Source: a virus (taxonomy: Duplodnaviria > Caudoviricetes). From it: 64,000 nucleotides of DNA. The stretch covers positions 1-64,000 of IMG/VR virus record IMGVR_UViG_3300033463_000088. One strand, given 5' to 3'. Of this stretch, positions 26,769 to 39,574 are shown in pieces. Each line of letters starts with the position of its first letter. The stretch's first letter is position 1. The notes beneath the pieces were generated by a model. The model was not told the DNA's origin and made no database searches. It saw only the letters and a list, made by a program, of their open reading frames with translations. The translations under genes and the position numbers were made by a program.

Positions 26769-27357
26769 TTAATTTTCTTAATTTTTCAGCACAGTCTTCA
26801 CAAATGTGTCTTGGACTTTCATGTAAACCATTATGAATACTTGTATAAATAAGCGGAATCTCAAAAATTTCTCCGCAAATTTCACATTTAGAATAAGCTT
26901 TTACTTCTGGGTCTGCAATTTTAAGTGGTTCAGCTAAGGCGCCTTCTATTGAAATATGACCATTGTTATCCATAGTATAAGTAGCAGCACCTTCTTCAGT
27001 AATGCCTTCTTCATTAATAGAAATTGTTTCTTGTGTCCATTTAATTGGTGGTTCATATAAATCTTTATCTTCCTGACTTGGTGTTACCTGTTCATATGTG
27101 CCATCATACAGCTCATAAGTGAACATAGAGCTGCCAGTATTACAATATTTACAGTGCCAGCCATATTGTGGCGGGTAAGAAGTTAAAATTACTCCTGTAT
27201 CAACAAGAGCCACTTTACCGCATTTTGGGCACTTAATATAAACTTTATTATTCACCCAAACATAATTATTAAAAGTATGATTTTTAATATCAACTGGTTT
27301 TACTTTTAATGTAGTTTTACCATCACCGGCATCAAATATATATTCTTTATCTGTCAT
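26758..27357 (-). CDS. zinc-ribbon hypothetical protein
   Basis: CPKCG/CKYC and CEICG/CEDC pairs. Confidence 0.6.
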   Translation of the reverse strand: MTDKEYIFDAGDGKTTLKVKPVDIKNHTFNNYVWVNNKVYIKCPKCGKVALVDTGVILTSYPPQYGWHCKYCNTGSSMFTYELYDGTYEQVTPSQEDKDLYEPPIKWTQETISINEEGITEEGAATYTMDNNGHISIEGALAEPLKIADPEVKAYSKCEICGEIFEIPLIYTSIHNGLHESPRHICEDCAEKLRKLIGK

Positions 27358-28202
27358 TATTCAGCTACCTCAAACTTTTCTTCAAGCTTAGTTGCTTGAT
27401 AATTTTCTAATTCAAAGTCTTCTTCTTTGAAATCATAGAAGTCTTTGACATTTGGATTTAATTTTAATGTTGGAGCATCATACTCTGGGTTTTCTAAGAG
27501 CTTTCTAACTACTTCAACATGTCTATCATAAATGTGTAAATTATGTACGATATGAACTAATGTTCCAACTTGATAACCACAAACTTGGGCTAACATATGC
27601 GTTAAAATTGCATATTCCATAGTATCCCAACCGCCTGAACTTGCAGCAGCAAGTAAGTCGCCAGAACGTTGAATAAGGGTGCAGTTTAATTTACCGTCAG
27701 TTACATCCCAAAGACTTTCATAAACACATGGAGGTAAAGCCATATCATGTAAATCTTCTGGGCACCACATGGTGACGATCATACGTCTATCCATAGGCTT
27801 ATTCTTTAATAAATAAATTAAGTTATCAACTTGATCAAAATCGCCGTAAGAATAATGAGAAACCTTACCTAATTGATAACCATAGGTCTTACCAATAGTT
27901 CCATCAGGTCTTTCCCAAGCTCTCCAAATCGCGGCGCTAGGGCCTAATTCATTAACAACGTTGGATTTCTTCTGCCACATCCATAAAAGCTCTCTTACGA
28001 CGCCTTTAAATGCTTGTTTTCTAAGTGTTAAAGCTGGAAACTCTTTTGATAAATCATATCTACGAACAACACAATGTGTTTTAATAGTATGAGCTGGTGT
28101 ACCATCTTCCCAATGTGGTCTGACTTCATAGTCCTTATCATTAAAACCATTTGTTAATAATTCAATTGCTTCTGAAATAAAATATTTATCTGCTTGACTC
28201 AT
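27357..28202 (-). CDS. thyA: thymidylate synthase
   Basis: RELLWMW, YGYQ, DRRMIV, MALPPC, QRSGD, HNLHIYDRH. Confidence 0.95.
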   Translation of the reverse strand: MSQADKYFISEAIELLTNGFNDKDYEVRPHWEDGTPAHTIKTHCVVRRYDLSKEFPALTLRKQAFKGVVRELLWMWQKKSNVVNELGPSAAIWRAWERPDGTIGKTYGYQLGKVSHYSYGDFDQVDNLIYLLKNKPMDRRMIVTMWCPEDLHDMALPPCVYESLWDVTDGKLNCTLIQRSGDLLAAASSGGWDTMEYAILTHMLAQVCGYQVGTLVHIVHNLHIYDRHVEVVRKLLENPEYDAPTLKLNPNVKDFYDFKEEDFELENYQATKLEEKFEVAE

Positions 28203-29816: not shown

Positions 29817-32800
29817 ATGAATCTAATCAGACGTCAATTATTAAAATTAATGCCAGTGGGTCATACCCTTGAAATCATTGCTGACAGTAGTTATGTTGGC
29901 AAGGTTTTTTATTGCACTTGTAAATATGATGGTCGAGTAGTTTCTGGTTCATGGATTATTTCATATGGCGACCAATTCGCGTCTATTAATGAAAATGGTA
30001 AAGTTACTATTTATGAAGACGTTCTTGGTGAAGATATTGAAATCACCTGTACTTATGAAGATTCTATTGCCGTTGTTGAAATTAATATTTCTTATGATAA
30101 CCAATTAACTATTGAATGTGCCGACACAATTACAGGCACTTCTGGTAATGCTTTTGCAAGATATAATTCTACTGTTGTTACTCCTACTTGGTCTATTACT
30201 TCTGGTGGTGCTTATGCTTCTATTGATGCTACAGGCGCTATCACAATTACTGATTCAGGCCAAATAACTTTACAGGCTGTGTATACAACATATACTACTA
30301 CTAAAACTATTAATGTTGTATACGACGCCGGAACTACTACTGAAACAACACTTGGTGATGATGGCTCAGTTACTACAGAAACAACTACTACAACAACTGA
30401 TCCTGAAACCGGAGCTGTTACAGAAACAACTACTTCCCAAACAACAAATGAAGATGGCTCTACAAGTTCTACTTCTATTGAAACAACTACTAATGAAGAT
30501 GGTTCGAGTTCAACTACTTCTACTACTACAAATTCTGATGGTTCAAGTAGTGAAACAACTTCTACTACCTCTGCTCCAGACCCAGAAACAGGTGCTGTCA
30601 CAACCGAAACTAGCACTTCTACAACAAATGCTGACGGAACAAGTAGTGAAACAACTGCAACCATAGTTGAAAATGAAGATGGTTCAAGTGAGTCAAGTTC
30701 CGAAACTATTCACTATGATGAGAACGGCGACGTCGCAGGTTCCACCGAAAATACAACTACTGTTAATACAGATGGTTCCAGCACAAGTCAAACAAACAAC
30801 TACGATGAAAACGGCGATCCGACATCAACAACAAATAATGATGTTGACGCATCTGGTAATAGTTCAACACAAGAAATTGAATATGATGATAATGGTGATC
30901 CTGTTGTCACCGAATATACTATCGATACTTCAGGCGGCAGCGGTGATGGTAAAGAGATTGAAGATGGTATCAATACTGAATACTATGCCTTCGACACAAC
31001 TAGAGGCTTTATTTTAGACATTGACTTTGTTATTGACTTTGCTCATCAACCAGCAAACCAAAACGAAAATCACCATAATATTTTAACTGCAAAAAGAGCA
31101 AGCCCATCTCCTTGGTATGGCTTCCAAATTAGACAATCTGGCACCAATAAATACGTCCAATTAGGTACACAATTTGCAACAGGTAACAATACTAATACTA
31201 CAATTAGCCCAATTGGTATGACTAATAATATTGCTGAATATATTTTACAAATTACTTATGATCCAACTCTTGCTTCAAATAATTTTATTTGTCGAGATTT
31301 AAAATCAGGCAATATTGTTTTTAGCGCAAGTAATAAATTCCCGGACATTGAAGCTCTTAAATACTTAAAAGTCTGCTTAGGCTACGCGATGGATGAAAAT
31401 GGTGATCCGTATAGATATTCTAATATCGCTGTTAAAAACTTCTCCCTTGTTAAGTTATCTAATGTTCTCTCACCAAGTATTAGTAGTAATGGTCGTTATA
31501 TTATTATTACTACAAATGAAACAGGTGCTACAACATATTATAGATTAAATCAATCTGGCAGTTTCCAAGAATATACTGGACAAATTGCTATGGTTAATGA
31601 TACTACTGTTGAAGCTTATTCTATGTTAGATGGCTTCACAAGTGTAACTGTCTCAGAATATTGCACTTATACTGGTCTTAAAAAACCAACTATTTCTTGT
31701 GATGGCCAGCTAGTCACTATTACTTGTGATACAGTTGGCGCATCTATTCATTATAGACTAAATCAAACTGGTGAATATATTGTTTATAATGCTCCAATTA
31801 CTATCTTTGAAGATACTATTGTTCAAGCTTATTCTGAATTAGGCGGCGACACAAGTGAAACAGTTAGAGTAGTTTGTGTTTATGATGATGCTCATAACTA
31901 CGCGGAAGATTATTTAACATTTAAGATTACTTCTAACGGAACTGTTGTCTGGAAGTCTATTGGCTCAGGTATGGCTAAAACTATTCAATATAGTTTAAAT
32001 GATGGCGCTTGAACCGATTTAGCTGCAACTGGTGGTGGTGCAACTATTACAGTTTATACAGGTGATGAAATTAGATTTAAGGGCTCAAATACTGCTTATG
32101 CGAAAGATAAGTCTAACTATTCTGGTTTTACTGGTGGCACTGCTACTTTTGACATTGAAGGTAATATCATGAGTTTAATTCATGGTGATAATTTCAGTGG
32201 CGAAACAGCTTTAACTGCTACCTATGCATTCTGCTCTATATTTAAACAAGCGGCAGTTGTTAATGCTGAAAACTTAATTTTACCTGCAACTACATTGACT
32301 AATTACTGCTACAGAGCTATGTTTAGTAAATGTCCTAACTTAGTAGTTGCTCCGGCTCTTCCAGCTACTACATTAACAACAGGTGTTTATTGGTATATGT
32401 TTGAAGAATGCCCAATTACAACTGCCCCTGTTCTTAATGCAACTACATTAACAACTGAATGTTATGGTCATATGTTTACTGGTTGCGGAAGCTTAAATTA
32501 TATTAAATGTTTAGCAACAAGTATTAGTGCAAGTAAAGCTTTAGAAGGTTGGGTTACTAGTGTTGCCGGTGTCGGTACATTTGTCAAAGCTGATGGTATT
32601 GCTTGGTCTACTGGTGTTGCAGGCATTCCTTCTGGATGGACCACTTATGTTAATGGTCAAGAGCCAGAGCCAGAAGAGCAAGATGACGTCTGGAGAATTG
32701 GGGGTCAATCAGTTACATTACCTTATTCATTAAATGCTATTGACGGCCACTCATCTGGCTATGCTAAGGGAACTTATAACTTTGTTGTAACTACTACCTT

Positions 32801-34604
32801 AGATGCTGTTCAACCAACTTATTTACAATTTGAACATGCTGACCAATCTGCTGAAATCTATGTTAATAACTCCTTAGTTACTACACACTGGGGCGGTTAT
32901 AACTCATTCACAGTAGATATTACTAATTATATTCATTTAGGGTCAAATAAAATTCAAGTTTCTATTTGTAATACAACAAGAAATACTCTCGCCCCTTGCG
33001 CTGGTGACTTTAACTTTAACGCAACTCTCGGCGATGTCTATTTAGTCTCAGGTGCTATTTTACCTGATACTATTTACGGCTATGATGGCTTCTGGATTAG
33101 CTCAGTTGTTTCTGATGCTGCCGCAGCTGTTACTGTTAAAACTACTGTTGCAAGTGAAGCCACTGTTGTATTGACTGTCTCAGACGGAACTTATACATAT
33201 ACTGATAGTCAAACAGATACTGGAGATATTACATTTAACTTTACTGTTAATAACCCGCATCTCTGGAACGGAAAATCTGACCCATATTTATATGATTTCA
33301 CCTTAGAAATTTATGATGGCCAAGATTTATGTTTCACTTCTACAAGACCTTATGGCTTCAGATATTATAGTTATGTATTTAATAATACTTCTGTTATTCC
33401 AGGAGAAACATATACTGGCTTCTTACTTAACGGCGCGCCATATTTATTAAGGGGCGTTTGCATGCACCAAGACTTGGAATATAAAGCAAATGCTCTTACT
33501 TCTGCTGATATTGCCCATGACTTTGAAATTATTCAAGATTTAGGCTGTAATTTTATCCGAACTGCCCACTATCCGCATCCAAGAGAATTCTATGACTGAT
33601 GTGATGAATTAGGCATTGTCGTTCAAACAGAAACTCCTTGGGTCAATAAAGCTCAATCTACTTACCCAACTGATTATTATGACCACTTAGGTAGTCAAGT
33701 TAGAGACATGGTTACTCAACATTATAACCACCCATCTATTATTTTCTGGGGTTTAGCAAACGAAATTACAACTGATGATAAAACCTTCGCAAAAACAAAA
33801 ATTGAAGGATATAAAGCTATTATTAATACTTATGACACTTCAAGATATGTCGGCTATGTCGTCAGCCATAGCTATCCAAACGGCTTAGGCACATTCAATG
33901 ACCCAGATGTTGACTATATTGGTCAAAACTTATATGTTGGTTGGTATATTGATACAAATACTAATAACCCATCTTCAAGAATTAATACTTGTTTAGGTTA
34001 TGCTAATAATCATAATAAACCAATGGCTTTATCTGAATACGGCTGCGGTGGAACTCAACGTTGCCACTCTGTAGACTTTATGACAACTACTACAAGGGGC
34101 AACAATCCAAGACACGATATTGAATATAATATGTGATTACATGAAGGTCATATCGCGGCTATTAAGAATTATCCGCAACTTATCTATACATCACAATGGG
34201 TTTTATTTGATTTCGCGGTCACAAGTAGACAAGAAGGTTATACAATTTGTTTAGATGGTGAAAATACTTCTACAAATGAGGACTTAAAGAGACTAAATAA
34301 TAAAGGTCTTGTTGAAAGAGATCACGTCACTAAGAAAGATACATATTATTTATATAAAGCTTGGTGAAACCCAACAAGTAAGTTCGTTCATATCTGTGGC
34401 AAAGAGTTTACACTTATTACTAGTAGACAAGTTAAATGTTATACTAATGATGGTGATACATTAGACCTCTATATTAATAACACTTTAACTGAGACCGCTG
34501 CTGTCTCTGATAACATTGCAATATTTACAGCAAGAACATTCTCGTCTGGCGACGTTATTAAGGTCCAAGGCGCGACGGTTTACGACACTTGAACAATTGC
34601 TTAG
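29817..34604 (+). CDS. 1595-aa modular protein: Ig-like, T/S/D-rich linker, lectin-like, Fn3/CHB-like, LRR-like and C-terminal GH2 glycoside hydrolase
   Basis: Track fragments 29817-32012, 32169-33599 and 33708-34136 are one frame joined by TGA at 32010, 33597, 34134, 34365 and 34590; stop TAG 34602-34604; GH2 motifs GVCMHQD, RTAHYPH, FYD[W]CDELG, NHPSIIFWGLANE, SEYG. Confidence 0.85.
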
Positions 34605-34611
34605 ATAAAAT

Positions 34612-34639
34612 AAAAAGAGCTCAAATCGAGCTCTTTTTT
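34612..34639. terminator. bidirectional intrinsic terminator
   Basis: aaaaagagctc-aaatc-gagctcttttt between convergent genes. Confidence 0.85.
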
Positions 34640-34656
34640 AATACTTTTTATTTTAA

Positions 34657-35589
34657 TTAGGAAACAGTAACTGTTTCAGTTTTTTCTGTCTTTGTGAGTG
34701 TGACATCACCAGATGCAGAACCAGTTGAACTAATTGTAGCTTCAGTTCCTGAGAAGGTTGGTTGTGTAGAAGAAGCACTTGTAATTCCTGTAACAACTGT
34801 TGTGCTATCATATGTTGGAAGAGTAACAGAAGTTGGAGTATTAGCTTGGAAAGTATCAGCACCATGTGTAGCAGCTGTGAAACTATCAGAACCTTGTGTA
34901 AAGGAACCTTGTGTAAAGCTAATTGTTAAGACTTCACCGCTAACACTTGTTGTTAATGTTGGGGCAACAAATTGGTCTGTACCTTGTGTAAATGAACCGC
35001 CACTAAATGTTCCGCTTGTAAATGATGCGGCAGAACCAGCACTAACAGAACCATCAGTTAATTTAGTTGGAATAGAGCTTGTTGCTGGAGTAACTGTAAT
35101 TGTTGGAGTAGAAACTGTGCCAGCAGGAGTATAAGTAGCAGAAGCAGAAACAGAACCATTTGAGAATGATGCACTATCAGCAGTTGTAAATGAAACTGAA
35201 CCCGAAGCACTACTCTTATATGCTAATGAACCAAGTCCTTCAAAACTAACCTCAGTATCACCTAATTTTTCCCAAACATAACTTGGAGTAGAAGTATCAC
35301 TAACATCAACTGTAACATATTCAGCATAAATTGTTTTATTATTAACTGTATGAGGAACTAAATAAATTTTACCTTGTGTACCTGACGCAGCAACTAATGA
35401 ACCAACAATATCACTTGTGCCATCATTCCAAGTAACACCATAAGGCGTTTTATTTGCAGCAGTTGATTTAACAAAAGCCAATGTTCCAGCAGATAATTGG
35501 CTAATTAAACCTCTGGCTTCTAAGTCTTTTAAATCATAAGTATTACCATCTGGTAAAGTAATTTGTGAAATATAAACTTTGTCTGACAT
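34657..35589 (-). CDS. virion fibre/decoration-like protein
   Basis: ISQITLPDGNTYDLKD N-terminus; S/T/G-rich TPAGTVS and QPTFSG repeats typical of phage fibre proteins. Confidence 0.6.
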   Translation of the reverse strand: MSDKVYISQITLPDGNTYDLKDLEARGLISQLSAGTLAFVKSTAANKTPYGVTWNDGTSDIVGSLVAASGTQGKIYLVPHTVNNKTIYAEYVTVDVSDTSTPSYVWEKLGDTEVSFEGLGSLAYKSSASGSVSFTTADSASFSNGSVSASATYTPAGTVSTPTITVTPATSSIPTKLTDGSVSAGSAASFTSGTFSGGSFTQGTDQFVAPTLTTSVSGEVLTISFTQGSFTQGSDSFTAATHGADTFQANTPTSVTLPTYDSTTVVTGITSASSTQPTFSGTEATISSTGSASGDVTLTKTEKTETVTVS

Positions 35590-35603
35590 AATTTTTTCCT
35601 CTT

Positions 35604-36092
35604 CTACTTAGTTAGTTTTAAGTTATAAGTTCCATCTGGAAGAACTTCAACTTCCGCAGAAACTTTATTGTTCCATTTTGTTCTATCAGATGAACTGACA
35701 TGAGCAGAAGTATCTGTTATATGATTTTGTAGTTCATCTTCTAAATATTGAACTGAAGAACCTTGGAATAAAATTTGTTTTGTTGTAAATTCTCCAGTAT
35801 TTTTATTTATATTTAACTCTGTCATATTACAACTTTGGCCTGCGCCAGTAGTTGTTGAGTTAATATACTTATAATTATCGCCTTCAATTCTTGCTAATCT
35901 ATAGAATTTTCCATCTAAATATACAACAGAATTATTAGTGGCGAATAGTTTTTCTAGGTCTTCCTCTGGAATTTGACCAGAGACATCCTCAATGTCAATA
36001 ACAACATCTTTTGGCTTGCCCCCTTCAGAAGAAGCAATCTTGCCATCAGCATAGCCGCGGGCTAAGATATAAGTGGTCATATCTATTGCCAT
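35604..36092 (-). CDS. hypothetical structural-region protein
   Basis: 162-aa ORF with RBS. Confidence 0.6.
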   Translation of the reverse strand: MAIDMTTYILARGYADGKIASSEGGKPKDVVIDIEDVSGQIPEEDLEKLFATNNSVVYLDGKFYRLARIEGDNYKYINSTTTGAGQSCNMTELNINKNTGEFTTKQILFQGSSVQYLEDELQNHITDTSAHVSSSDRTKWNNKVSAEVEVLPDGTYNLKLTK

Positions 36093-36108
36093 ACTATATC
36101 CTCCCTAA

Positions 36109-36303
36109 CTACATGATTCCAAGTTGAATTTTTGTGATGTTTAACCATCTATCATTTTCTTCATCGTACATCCAGAGCATTGCAGTATCCATCTCTAAGA
36201 AGGTTGAGCCATTACCAAGTAATCTGTAATCTTTCTTTAATGGCTTTTTGTCAGTGCTAAGGCCACGGAGTTCGATGCAGCGTTCATTTACAGGACTAAT
36301 CAT
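36109..36303 (-). CDS. small hypothetical phage protein
   Basis: ELRGLSTDKKP...GNGSTFLEMDT...YDEEN..W pattern. Confidence 0.6.
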   Translation of the reverse strand: MISPVNERCIELRGLSTDKKPLKKDYRLLGNGSTFLEMDTAMLWMYDEENDRWLNITKIQLGIM

Positions 36304-36318
36304 ATCTGCTCGCCCTCC

Positions 36319-36576
36319 TTACCTTGCCGCCTGAGCATTCCAAGCTCTTATCTCTGCTTGGAGGTCAGGGTCTTCTAGAGATCTACCAGAGGCAACAGCC
36401 ATATACATTTTGTTATAGAAAAGAACAGCGGCATTTGATGGGTTATTATAAATCTGATTCCAGAGTTTAGTTAACTCATCTGCATGCTTTGCTGCATTAC
36501 TATACATTTGATTTCATTCTTCTTGTGTATAGTTCTTTGCTATTTGATCACGTCTAAATTCTTGACCTTCTGCCAT
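36319..36576 (-). CDS. hypothetical protein with in-frame TGA
   Basis: MAEGQEFRRDQIAKNYTQEE[TGA]NQMYSNAA...; extends the track ORF to an ATG about 20 nt downstream of the GCTAAATTA motif. Confidence 0.65.
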
Positions 36577-36620: not shown

Positions 36621-37559
36621 TTATATATTACATTTAACTATGTTAAAGTCTTTTAATTGGTCTTTAATTTGGTCTTCATAGTCTGAATTTATAAGTAAAA
36701 ACTTTGCTCCCTTAAGACCTGAGCCAACAAGCTTCTCACCATAAACGCCATCTATTTCACAAATATGATATTCTTCTTCAAAAATATTTACTTTTAAATT
36801 AAGCATACTTTGGGTTAAGCATGCGCCCATATAAGTCTCAGTTAGACCATCTTCATTTGCCCATCAGCTTGCACAATCTACAATACACTCTTCAAAGTGA
36901 ATAAACTGACTAATTAAAGTATTTGGCTTTGCTTCTTTAATTCTTGTAACATTATCTAAAAACTTTCTGTCAGCTGAGTGATTATGTTGTTCATTATAAA
37001 TTAATAAACCAGAATAATGTTTATCATCTAATTTAATATCAGCACCTAAATCACAAGTGCTTGTATCAATTTTCCAGATACCTGGTTCATGTAAAATAGC
37101 TTTAAAATCCATTCTGCCGCAAGGAATTTGTAAATAATTATGTTCTACCCAATAGCCAAATTTTACTATTAAATTATCACTTAACTCTAAATTATTCCAA
37201 TAACAAATAGTTTTTAAAATGGAGATAATAAAAGCAGCTGATGATGAAACACCTAAGCCACTTGGTAAATCATTAGAAATAGTAATATCACAGCCAGTAT
37301 TTAATTTTAAGTTATTTCTTGCAAAGACATTAATACAGCCATCAACATAATCAGTCCAAGTATAACTTCTTTTTGACTGCGGTTGAAGGTTTACTTCATA
37401 ATATGAAAATTCTTTGGAAGTAATAGAAAGTTTTTTATCTTCTCTTTTATTACTTTCAGCTATAATATATTTATCTATTGTAGAAGTAAGAACTGGTTCA
37501 TTAATACAATCAAGGTAAGCACCAGCTCAATTAATACGATATGGAACTTTAATTTGCAT
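36621..37559 (-). CDS. galactokinase-like GHMP kinase (312 aa, two in-frame TGA)
   Basis: VPYRIN[TGA 37527]AGAYLD, WTDYVDG, DLPSGLGVSSSAA, EHNYLQIPCGRMD, GVYGEKLVGSG; second TGA at 36864. Confidence 0.8.
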
Positions 37560-37580
37560 ATATTTATTATACAATAAATA

Positions 37581-37610
37581 AAGAAAAACTCCAAATTAGG
37601 AGTTATTCTT
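37581..37610 (-). terminator. intrinsic terminator
   Basis: aagaataactcc/ggagtttttctt hairpin plus T tract, immediately upstream of the promoter motif at 37565-37575. Confidence 0.6.
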
Positions 37611-38040
37611 TAAGACTGCCATCAGCATTTATTATATCTGAGACATACTGTCCAGATTCTAAATAAATTTTTTGACAATCTACTTGATTAAGAGCTTCCA
37701 TTTCAGTATCAAAAATTTGACTATACTCAGTAGCTCAGGTGCTATTTTGGTCTCGTTCAGAGAGTCTATTAATAATCTCATCTTTTATTTCTGGTTTTGG
37801 CATAATAATGCAATCTACAGGAATCTTAAATCTAACTAAAGCATTTGTAGCTCTGAAATTATTAATCATAATATTATAACCATGCGCCTTATAATACAAA
37901 ACTATTCGACTAAAGATGGTTTCAGCAAAAGGTCCTGGAAAATATTCAGCTAATGCCCAGTCCAAATCTACTCAATTTAAATGTGTTTTACAGAAATCTG
38001 TTTTACCTGTACCAGATGTTGCGACATAAATTTTTGACAT
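37603..38040 (-). CDS. small P-loop kinase-like protein (two in-frame TGA)
   Basis: MSKIYVATSGTGKT...N[TGA 37972]VDLD; second TGA at 37735; 145 aa. Confidence 0.7.
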
Positions 38041-38044
38041 AATA

Positions 38045-39574
38045 TTATTCTCCTACTTTGCTTTCTAAAACAGCTAATCTTGTTTCAAGATCTTCAATTT
38101 TTTTCTTTTGGTCTTTTAATGCAAGAAGAGCAACATAAGCTAACTTAGCATCTCAAACACCTAATTTATGCTCTACTTCTCCAGTTTCTTGGTTTGGTAT
38201 TTCAGCATCTCTAATTAATGCATTACGATATCTTTCTGGTAAAGCTGCTTCTAAATCTTGTGCAATAACACCAATACCTATATTATGGTCTTCATCTGCC
38301 TTAAAACTAAACTCTACAATCTCTAACTTATCTAATAGACTATTAGTATCTAAAGTTGTAGGAGCAATATTTTCTTTAAGGCTTCTATCAGATGACATAG
38401 CATAGTATGAATTTCAGTTATTACTGTTAAACCAGGCTTCAGAGTGCGGACCACTTGCATTCTGATAAAGCGTTCCAGTAACAAATACATCACCTCTAAT
38501 AACTACACCTGTATCATCAAAAGCATCTATAAATCTAGAGGCAACACAGCCATTTGGATAGAAGCATCAACCATAATAGTTTGCGGTATCTGCAGGATGT
38601 ACTGAAGTTTGGGTACCAGGAATAAGAAGAATTGGAGCAGTCATACAAACTGGATTGCCATTTTTTGGCTGAATACCTAAGTCATTTGCAGACTCTCATA
38701 ATGAACTTCCACTACTAGAAGAACCTGTAGCATCATCACGTCATGCTGGATTACCATCAGCATCAGTTTTTCAAACTTTATATGCAGCAGATGCACCTGG
38801 CGCAGAGACATAGCCAGCTTGTGTGACTGTATTTGCATTTCAGGTATTATTGTCTGTAGAACTAATTGTTATTTCACCATCAGCAGATTTTGTTACAGTT
38901 GTGCTACCTCCACCCTTAATACTTAAAGTAGAATTACCACTTTGATTAGCTGTAAATGAAACAGCGTCAGTAGTGCCAGCTTGAATTTTAAATGTACCAT
39001 TATTAACTGTATAAGTAGAATTTTCCCATGGAACACTAACATATGCTTTACTATTTGAGTCTAATTGAACAGCATATTTTTTCGATTCACCTTCTGGTAA
39101 TGTATAACCGAGTTTAATACCACCAAGTGCACTGTCGGTAGCAGCTGATAAAGAATAAGCATTTGCACTTTCTGCAATTCCGTCTAATTTTGTTTTATCA
39201 GCAGCAGACATTAGACCCGCAGCAGACTGTGTAGCATTGTTATAAGTGGTATCACTATCAGAAGGAAGAGTAATAGTTTTTGTAGAAGCAGCTGTTACAC
39301 GTCCTTTAGCATCAACTGTAATATAAGGGACACTAAATGTTCCTTCATGACCTGGGCTAGCATCAGATGATGGACCATAACTATCAGCGCCAACGCCAGA
39401 ATCAGCTAATCTACTAGCATTTAAAGTTCCAGATGAAATATTACTAGCATTTAAGCCTGTTAAACCAGAGCCATTACCTAAAAGTGTTCCGCCAACAGTT
39501 AAATTACCAGATATATTTTCATCATCTGTTACTCTTAATTTACCACGAACTATTGTACTATTTAAATCAGCCAT
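38045..39574 (-). CDS. tail fibre/spike protein with C-terminal Peptidase_S74-type intramolecular chaperone
   Basis: Track fragments 38840-39574 and 38153-38398 join through TGA; SDRSLKENI chaperone start, IGVIAQDLE, C-terminal coiled coil; 509 aa. Confidence 0.8.

Follow-up and report, generated by a model that had tools for sequence, protein, structure and literature searches.

Phages glycosylate DNA and, in mycobacteriophages, virion proteins, and phage glycosylation is generally thought to use nucleotide sugars of the host or, for arabinose, APH-like kinases. There are precedents for GHMP sugar kinases, for phages recoded at TGA and for arrays of glycosyltransferases in phages. Here, we examined a gene, designated P0001, that is predicted to encode a GHMP-family kinase of 312 aa and lies at positions 36621–37559 on the minus strand of a 64,000-nt stretch (the window, to which positions refer unless another locus is named) of IMG/VR virus record IMGVR_UViG_3300033463_000088. 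The whole record is a 75,080-base virus contig, approximately 33% complete (CheckV), with a bovine gut metagenome as its most probable source. The phage is a large one from the cattle gut, in which the stop codon TGA is decoded as tryptophan. What appears to be new is a GHMP subfamily confined to phages, in which the sugar pocket has been remodelled and which is repeatedly associated with fibre and glycan genes.

Among the nearest known systems are the phage-encoded sugar kinases RB69 gp52:53, DLP3 gp82 and HY126 AfhE, which, according to the portion of the source available (PMC13326640), make a sugar 1-phosphate for phage glycosyltransferases. The same portion describes gene clusters that, like the window, hold a small P-loop protein, there a nucleotide kinase, together with sugar kinases that are APH or protein-kinase-like, are fused to a nucleotidyltransferase and take arabinose 5-phosphate as substrate. 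The window kinase is unlike these in being a stand-alone GHMP protein; no nucleotidyltransferase was found in its record, and neither a HAD phosphatase nor an isomerase was seen close by. In mycobacteriophage operons for virion glycosylation (Freeman et al. 2023, as cited), glycosyltransferase genes are found among structural genes and their products decorate virion proteins. No sugar kinase is reported for those operons in the citing passages, and glycosylation of proteins in the phage of the window is putative.

When TGA is read as Trp, a single frame extends over 36621–37574 on the minus strand, with an ATG at 37559 and a TAA stop at 36621–36623. Under translation table 11 the same stretch is split into pieces at 36621–36830 (69 aa) and 36864–37112 (82 aa) plus an N-terminal piece. 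There are two in-frame TGA codons, at Trp11 (37527–37529, minus strand), within motif I, and at Trp232 (36864–36866, minus strand). The Trp11 column is TGG in five of six homologous loci and TGA in the sixth, a metagenomic locus designated L005, and the L005 kinase has a further TGA at the invariant Trp68, which is TGG in all six of the other loci. Because the TGA codons at Trp11 and at Trp68 of L005 both align with TGG of relatives, as is looked for in a phage recoded from TGA to Trp, the codon alignment shows that TGA is read as Trp within the kinase gene. The Trp232 column is variable (Y, K or E elsewhere) and uninformative on the code. The entire right half of the window is alike, with long fibre-like genes that are open only when TGA encodes Trp and that include up to 15 such codons each. 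From its frame and matches the gene is intact, and its identification as a GHMP kinase is not due to chance. An earlier note on this DNA had pointed to a hidden GHMP kinase opened by TGA read-through, and this was borne out by the single 312-aa frame, by the family match described next and by the presence of all of the motifs quoted.

The Pfam family GHMP_kinases_N (PF00288) matched P0001 with an E value of 2.4e-13 and a score of 50.5 bits (cut-off, 22.3) and matched all 29 members of the family formed by P0001 and its relatives. Used alone as a query, P0001 found the Pyrococcus furiosus galactokinase (1s4e) with an E value of 5.9e-15. A profile built from the family found the same structure at 3e-31 over residues 2–307, followed by mevalonate kinase (1kkh, 2.7e-20), Lactococcus GalK (1pie, 7e-19) and heptose kinase (4n3o, 5e-17). 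In NCBIfam, four galactokinase models (TIGR00131, NF003006, NF003705 and NF003472) ranked first but all were far below their curated cut-offs, with scores of 93.2 against 443, 77.5 against 385, 77.2 against 226.65 and 73.7 against 499. The models for HddA heptose kinase (42.6 against 600), mevalonate kinase (39.8 against 163), homoserine kinase (16.9 against 168), archaeal shikimate kinase (16.3 against 127) and phosphomevalonate kinase (11.6 against 166) scored lower still. PF10509, which represents the galactose-binding signature, did not match P0001 at E values up to 1 or any of the 29 members at E values up to 0.01. The C-terminal domain PF08544 was detected in three of the 29 members, P0001 not being one of them. 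Feature matches in the ESM Atlas fell in GalK-like clusters in 20 of 30 cases, which merely repeats the sequence result. On these scores, P0001 belongs to the GHMP kinase superfamily and appears to descend from its galactokinase-like branch. The assignment to a subfamily by hidden Markov models that the earlier note had set as a check ranked galactokinase models first, with every curated cut-off missed.

Motif I (R8–C18, RINWAGAYLDC; 37506–37538, minus strand) was located by alignment to 1s4e and to the Pyrococcus horikoshii galactokinase 2cz9, and residues 6–18 of P0001 read PYRINWAGAYLDC. At the site of the galactose-binding signature (G-R-x-N-L-I-G-E-H-x-D-Y), P0001 reads YRINWAGAYLDC, and GAYLDC aligns opposite the GEHTDY of GalK. 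The phosphate-binding loop of motif II, PSGLGVSSSAAF (residues 99–110; 37230–37265, minus strand), was identified from the PF00288 match and from motif conservation, and includes the P-x-G-x-G-L-x-S-S-A pattern typical of the N-terminal domain of the superfamily. In the alignment, Asp151 of PCGRMD (residues 146–151; 37107–37124, minus strand) corresponds to the catalytic Asp151 of the Pyrococcus GalK. In profile alignments extending to residue 307–317, the putative motif III, KLVGSGLKGA (residues 276–285; 36705–36734, minus strand), lies opposite the TGAGFGG loop in GalK and the GAGGGG loop in mevalonate kinase. In the alignment of 29 sequences, with identity down to 35%, R8, Y15, D17, the motif II loop, Glu139, D151 and the glycines of motif III are invariant.

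Relative to the Pyrococcus GalK, P0001 retains Arg8 (Arg11 in GalK), Asp17 (Asp20) and Asp151 (Asp151), so that the catalytic Arg and Asp of galactokinases are both present. Glu17, His18 and Tyr200 of GalK are replaced by Ala14, Tyr15 and Phe200, respectively, and Phe200 is invariant in the family. From the structural literature on GalK, we take Glu17, His18 and Tyr200 to be galactose contacts, Tyr200 being the sugar-contact Tyr that P0001 lacks. An Arg…Asp pair in motif I is the pattern of sugar kinases, and mevalonate kinase has a Lys there. Hence, the family is best described as having kept sugar-kinase chemistry and lost the galactose pocket. Since the scores are far below the cut-offs, PF10509 matches none of the 29 members and three GalK contacts are replaced, P0001 would not qualify as a galactokinase, and equivalog membership fails. 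The suggestion in the earlier note of a galactokinase-like kinase with an altered sugar motif was supported, the N-terminus being GalK-like. The conservation of the catalytic set across sequences down to about one-third identity argues for an active enzyme. The Arg and Asp of motif I and the first rank of galactokinases in every search argue for a sugar substrate, and the three replaced contacts, together with the missing signature, point away from galactose and towards another sugar.

Compared with the archaeal-type galactokinases (1s4e, 2cz9 and NF003006), P0001 thus shares the fold family, the short length, the catalytic Arg and Asp, the sugar-holding Asp, the phosphate loop and, by alignment, a probable motif III. 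It differs in its score (93 bits against a cut-off of 443), in the three substitutions and the absent PF10509 signature, in having strongly diverged middle and C-terminal parts and in being found only in phage-like DNA. The D-glycero-D-manno-heptose 7-phosphate kinases HddA and WcbL (4n3o, 3k85 and 4usk) are likewise GHMP sugar kinases with an R…D motif I, and the family profile found them at E values of 5e-17 to 1e-09, but the NCBIfam HddA model (42.6 bits against 600) is weaker on P0001 than the GalK models.

A word-indexed search recovered 28 relatives of P0001 (310–344 residues, 32–79% identity), all of them metagenome-derived and none of them named. An exhaustive profile search of 1.84 billion representatives, with clusters defined at 50% identity, found eight full-length clusters at 284–469 bits and a few fragments. 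The next full-length protein scored 145 bits and was followed by a long tail of proteins at about 100 bits. Of the ten nearest proteins outside the family, seven matched best with galactokinase models and three with mevalonate-kinase models, and two of the ten passed a GalK cut-off. A pattern scan of IMG/VR yielded one family member (locus L001) besides that in the window's own record, and six family-level loci (L003–L008) were found in JGI/ENA metagenome contigs. No member was found among 185,579 bacterial and archaeal species, each represented by one genome, where the best match (E value of 3e-14) had 30% identity over half of the protein. Phage records in GenBank included distant GHMP genes only, in six records and all at 30% identity or less, and in PHROGs a single family, phrog_34407 (function unknown), was weakly related (1.3e-07). 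As far as these searches extend, the family appears to be confined to phage-like DNA.

The earlier note had remarked that sugar kinases of this type are rarely noted in phages, and this is fair, as no description of a phage-encoded GHMP kinase was found in the literature when judged on listings, abstracts and term matches. Among the matches listed, papers on phage-encoded auxiliary metabolic genes did not name galactokinase, and the bioRxiv version of Pyle et al. mentions neither a kinase nor GHMP. No paper was found for the structure AbGHMP (PDB 9ulx), and the GHMP-related passage available from the Lipocone paper concerns bacterial mevalonate genes.

The genes around the kinase were compared in seven contexts using local BLAST of all open frames and family scans, with L006 and L007 counted as one lineage. 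In the window, the kinase is part of a run of genes on the same strand that consists of giant fibre-like genes, a gene for a LamG protein, a gene for a 509-aa tail fibre with a Peptidase_S74 intramolecular chaperone domain (38045–39574, minus strand), a gene for a P-loop protein, the kinase gene and genes for four small or Ser/Thr-rich proteins. In L003 and L005, a homologue of the S74 fibre gene immediately precedes the kinase gene, so a fibre gene takes the upstream position in three loci, in the window with the small P-loop gene standing between. In L005, homologues of the 920-aa Big_13, 175-aa and 1030-aa proteins of the window are followed by a 1044-aa S74 fibre and then the kinase, at the end of the contig. 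In L003, the S74 fibre and kinase genes are followed by one for a calcineurin-like metallophosphoesterase (L003:1899–2437; PF00149, 7.2e-06), an enzyme that might act on the kinase product. In L008, the kinase gene faces a gene for a homologue of the 648-aa protein described below.

Glycosyltransferase genes are located within 10 kb of the kinase in three other lineages (L004, L001 and L006/L007), the kinases of which are only 35–52% identical. In L004, a GT2 gene (PF13704, 29.3 bits against a cut-off of 27.5) starts 1 nt past the kinase stop codon. L006/L007 includes a homologue of the P-loop protein, the kinase, an HExxH protein, a 615-aa protein, a GT1 and two GT8. L001 lies in G001, an IMG/VR record of 130,018 bases that is 100% complete (CheckV). 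On one side of the G001 kinase are genes for topoisomerase II, a nucleoside deoxyribosyltransferase, a xanthine/uracil permease, a helicase and RNase H, and on the other are those for a small membrane protein with an HExxH motif, a 648-aa protein of unknown function (15 TGA), two GT1 and five paralogous GT8-like proteins of about 280 aa. The paralogy of all five rests on BLAST, and one of the two GT8-like genes that were scanned matches PF01501 and the other does not. A Stealth sugar-phosphate transferase gene (PF11380, 2.5e-33) is 4 kb upstream of the kinase, which is 3–10 kb from the GT1, GT8-like and Stealth genes. Most genes in this glycan island have 6–15 in-frame TGA codons; the kinase gene and one of the GT1 genes have none. 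The GT1 proteins of G001 and L007 are 54–58% identical to a glycosyltransferase of S-CAM7 that is found in marine cyanomyoviruses (51 records). In Synechococcus phage S-CAM7 (NC_031927.1, L046, 17930–18910), the gene for this GT1 homologue lies between baseplate and tail-fibre genes, beside a 2OG-Fe(II) oxygenase gene. Co-occurrence with glycosyltransferases in related phages had been set beforehand as a test by the earlier note, and it was observed in all three lineages. This recurrent placement is the best clue to function.

Several other features of these loci were noted. The G001 glycan island (L001:1983–20463) also includes a gene for a possible GT-A protein with a DDD motif, which has no Pfam match. 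The permease of G001 belongs to the xanthine/uracil family (PF00860, 1.1e-60; L001:2761–4615) and is encoded beside the nucleoside 2-deoxyribosyltransferase; a nucleobase transporter is unusual for a phage. The small membrane protein with the HExxH motif HECGH follows the kinase at L001:11056–11493 and L007:1354–1803, both on the plus strand, and a homologue (44–46% identical) is encoded in the window's own record at 71008–71442 on the minus strand, beyond the window and 34 kb from the kinase.

Taking these data together, we tentatively favour, at somewhat less than even confidence, an active phage-specific GHMP sugar kinase that acts on a monosaccharide other than galactose and feeds phage-directed glycosylation, with the virion fibres as the favoured target. 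The enzyme, derived from the galactokinase-like branch, would use ATP to phosphorylate the free monosaccharide, probably on its anomeric hydroxyl, the position used by GalK. It would be made with the late proteins in this phage, because the gene needs TGA=Trp decoding and ends the tail-fibre gene run. The sugar phosphate might then be activated to a nucleotide sugar by host enzymes or by an unrecognized phage protein, or might be used directly, and the sugar would be transferred to virion fibre proteins rich in Ser and Thr. The choice of sugar, phosphorylation at the anomeric position, the connection to glycosylation and the fibre target are each deduced from genes and residues and are put forward as probable only. 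Virion fibres are favoured because the close clade keeps the kinase at an S74 fibre gene, because the kinase needs the late code in this phage and because the GT1 of the distant clade resembles the S-CAM7 transferase encoded between baseplate and tail-fibre genes.

Several points weigh against this reading. The main gap in the mechanism is the step from sugar phosphate to nucleotide sugar: no nucleotidyltransferase of the NTP_transferase (PF00483) or NTP_transf_3 (PF12804) families was found encoded with the kinase, either in the 75-kb record of the window or in the complete G001, where this step is unaccounted for. Searches for UDPGP (PF01704) and Tet_JBP have no bearing on presence, as their controls matched nowhere. 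In the 75-kb record, which covers about 33% of the genome, no GT1, GT2 or GT8 was found either. Unrelated cargo genes commonly accumulate at the ends of fibre operons, making adjacency weak evidence. The kinase gene has no TGA at all in five of the seven loci compared, and late-only expression is therefore not a trait of the family. In the portions of the literature available, glycosyltransferase arrays of large phages have also been read as host-surface or DNA modifiers, besides virion modifiers. Finally, in the one RNA run considered, assembled contigs, which cannot show transcription, covered only 35501–35807 and did not cover the kinase.

A GHMP family confined to phages would give sugars a new way into the synthesis of phage glycans. 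A single soluble enzyme would offer a simple handle on which sugar is used by uncultivated rumen phages, and the kinase may serve as a promiscuous or novel anomeric kinase in chemo-enzymatic sugar-nucleotide synthesis. If the substrate is ordinary, the gain would be a modest one in annotation. A broader proposal, which we regard as rather unlikely, is that large rumen phages run their own late-gated glycosylation, in which a phage-only anomeric kinase, sometimes with a minimal kinase-like P-loop protein that makes up for a missing activation step, feeds arrays of GT1, GT2, GT8 and Stealth enzymes that coat Ser/Thr-rich fibres with a sugar that the host does not normally activate. If true, such a pathway would parallel, in viruses of bacteria, the glycosylation that giant eukaryotic viruses encode for themselves.

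The earlier note had also raised glycosylation of DNA, and a kinase that supplies an activated sugar for this purpose, as in hypermodified cytosine, is an improbable alternative that nevertheless has some support. The window includes a ThyA homologue (27357–28202, minus strand) that retains counterparts of Leu143 and Asp169 of E. coli and, in place of Asn177, carries Asp, which suggests a dCMP-directed enzyme. According to the available part of the source (PMC13326640), the DNA-arabosylation clusters of RB69 and DLP3 comprise a ThyA homologue, a small nucleotide kinase, a sugar kinase and GT4-like transferases, an arrangement that the pair of P-loop protein and kinase resembles. The G001 kinase borders a block of genes for DNA metabolism (topoisomerase, helicase, RNase H and nucleoside deoxyribosyltransferase), but no ThyA homologue was found in this complete genome, which has both the kinase and glycosyltransferases. 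In the window, about 9 kb of DNA, which includes a gene for a GH2 domain protein, separates the ThyA gene from the kinase, which belongs to the late fibre block. At least seven transferases would be many for a DNA adduct, and the sugar kinases published in the text available are fusions of an APH-like domain with a nucleotidyltransferase rather than GHMP proteins (PMC13326640). In that text, a D169N change marks the ThyA-type 5-hydroxycytosine synthases (PMC13326640), and by this rule the window ThyA homologue, which keeps Asp169, would not be one. The 5-hydroxycytosine route was rejected for this phage on that ground. Of the glycosylation role first proposed, the DNA part is therefore weak, given the retained Asp169 and a G001 without a detected ThyA homologue, and the virion part stands as the favoured guess.

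Equally improbable in our estimate is an auxiliary metabolic or host-surface gene that traps a host or dietary sugar for catabolism or for a change of envelope glycan, a role that includes the capture of a sugar released by the GH2 domain protein. This protein (1595 aa; 29817–34604, plus strand) is encoded 2 kb from the kinase. GT8 enzymes are typical of lipopolysaccharide synthesis. Similar arrays of glycosyltransferases were read as host-surface modifiers by the authors of a cyanophage study, in the part of it available. However, the GH2 gene is convergent with the kinase run and lies behind a strong two-way terminator-like hairpin (34612–34638; 11–12 pairs with T runs on both sides) that ends the kinase-bearing run and faces the GH2 gene. 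GH2 was not found in the complete G001, which has the kinase, and none was seen in the other family loci within the DNA available there. For these reasons a coupling of kinase and GH2 was rejected, and with it the capture of a GH2-released sugar that had been suggested earlier. A salvage kinase should also resemble the host GalK, and this family has no cellular members detected and has lost the GalK sugar contacts.

A GHMP kinase for a substrate other than a sugar, such as a hydroxy acid, an amino acid, a polyol or a nucleotide-like signal, seems less probable again. In its favour, P0001 is far below the cut-off of every curated subfamily model, PF22700 (MVD-like_N) weakly matches five of the 29 members, three of the ten nearest outside proteins are best matched by mevalonate-kinase models and three GalK sugar contacts are lost. 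Yet galactokinases are the best matches in every search, the Arg and Asp of motif I, which hold the sugar in GalK and heptose kinases, are invariant, and the neighbours are glycan genes rather than isoprenoid or amino-acid genes. A catalytically dead GHMP fold with a structural or assembly role for fibres would fit the position of the kinase directly after fibre genes in three loci but merits hardly any weight, as all of the catalytic elements are invariant in 29 diverged sequences, which is unexpected if the protein is dead.

The P-loop protein encoded between the S74 fibre and the kinase (P0178, 145 aa; 37603–38040, minus strand) has two in-frame TGA codons and a Walker A motif, GTGKT, and matches phrog_4182 (function unknown) with an E value of 4.8e-09. 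A homologue with 34% identity is encoded directly upstream of the kinase in L006/L007 (L006:401–838; L007:2–310), and the P-loop partner thus adjoins the kinase in two lineages. It was not found in the complete G001 at the sensitivity used. An alignment of nine P-loop sequences (A3) showed G10, G12, K13, T14, D25, D27, R92 and R96 to be invariant. No Pfam family matched P0178 alone or any of the nine members, and no PDB family was found with the single sequence or the profile. A single-sequence search of the protein database returned only the query. In the ESM Atlas, P0178 fell in viral hypothetical clusters with weak leads to AAA_28, AAA_33 and AAA_18, and tblastn against phage records gave one weak match, in a 635-kb uncultured phage. 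From the Walker A motif and the two Asp and two Arg that are invariant, P0178 may be a kinase, and by its position it is a candidate for the nucleotide-activation step in the favoured reading.

The remainder of the window run was examined in the same strand. A weak terminator-like hairpin, with six pairs and a T run, is located between the P-loop gene and the kinase (37587–37604, minus strand) and is a pattern match only. After the kinase, the run continues over 34657–36576 (minus strand) with genes for proteins of 85 aa, 64 aa, 162 aa (P0177) and 310 aa (P0176). P0177 has weak matches to tail-fibre PHROGs, and P0176 (34657–35589, minus strand) is Ser/Thr-rich and fibre-like. P0176 and the long linker in the GH2 domain protein are both extremely rich in Ser and Thr; such sequence is O-glycosylated in other systems, and this is offered as a lead only.

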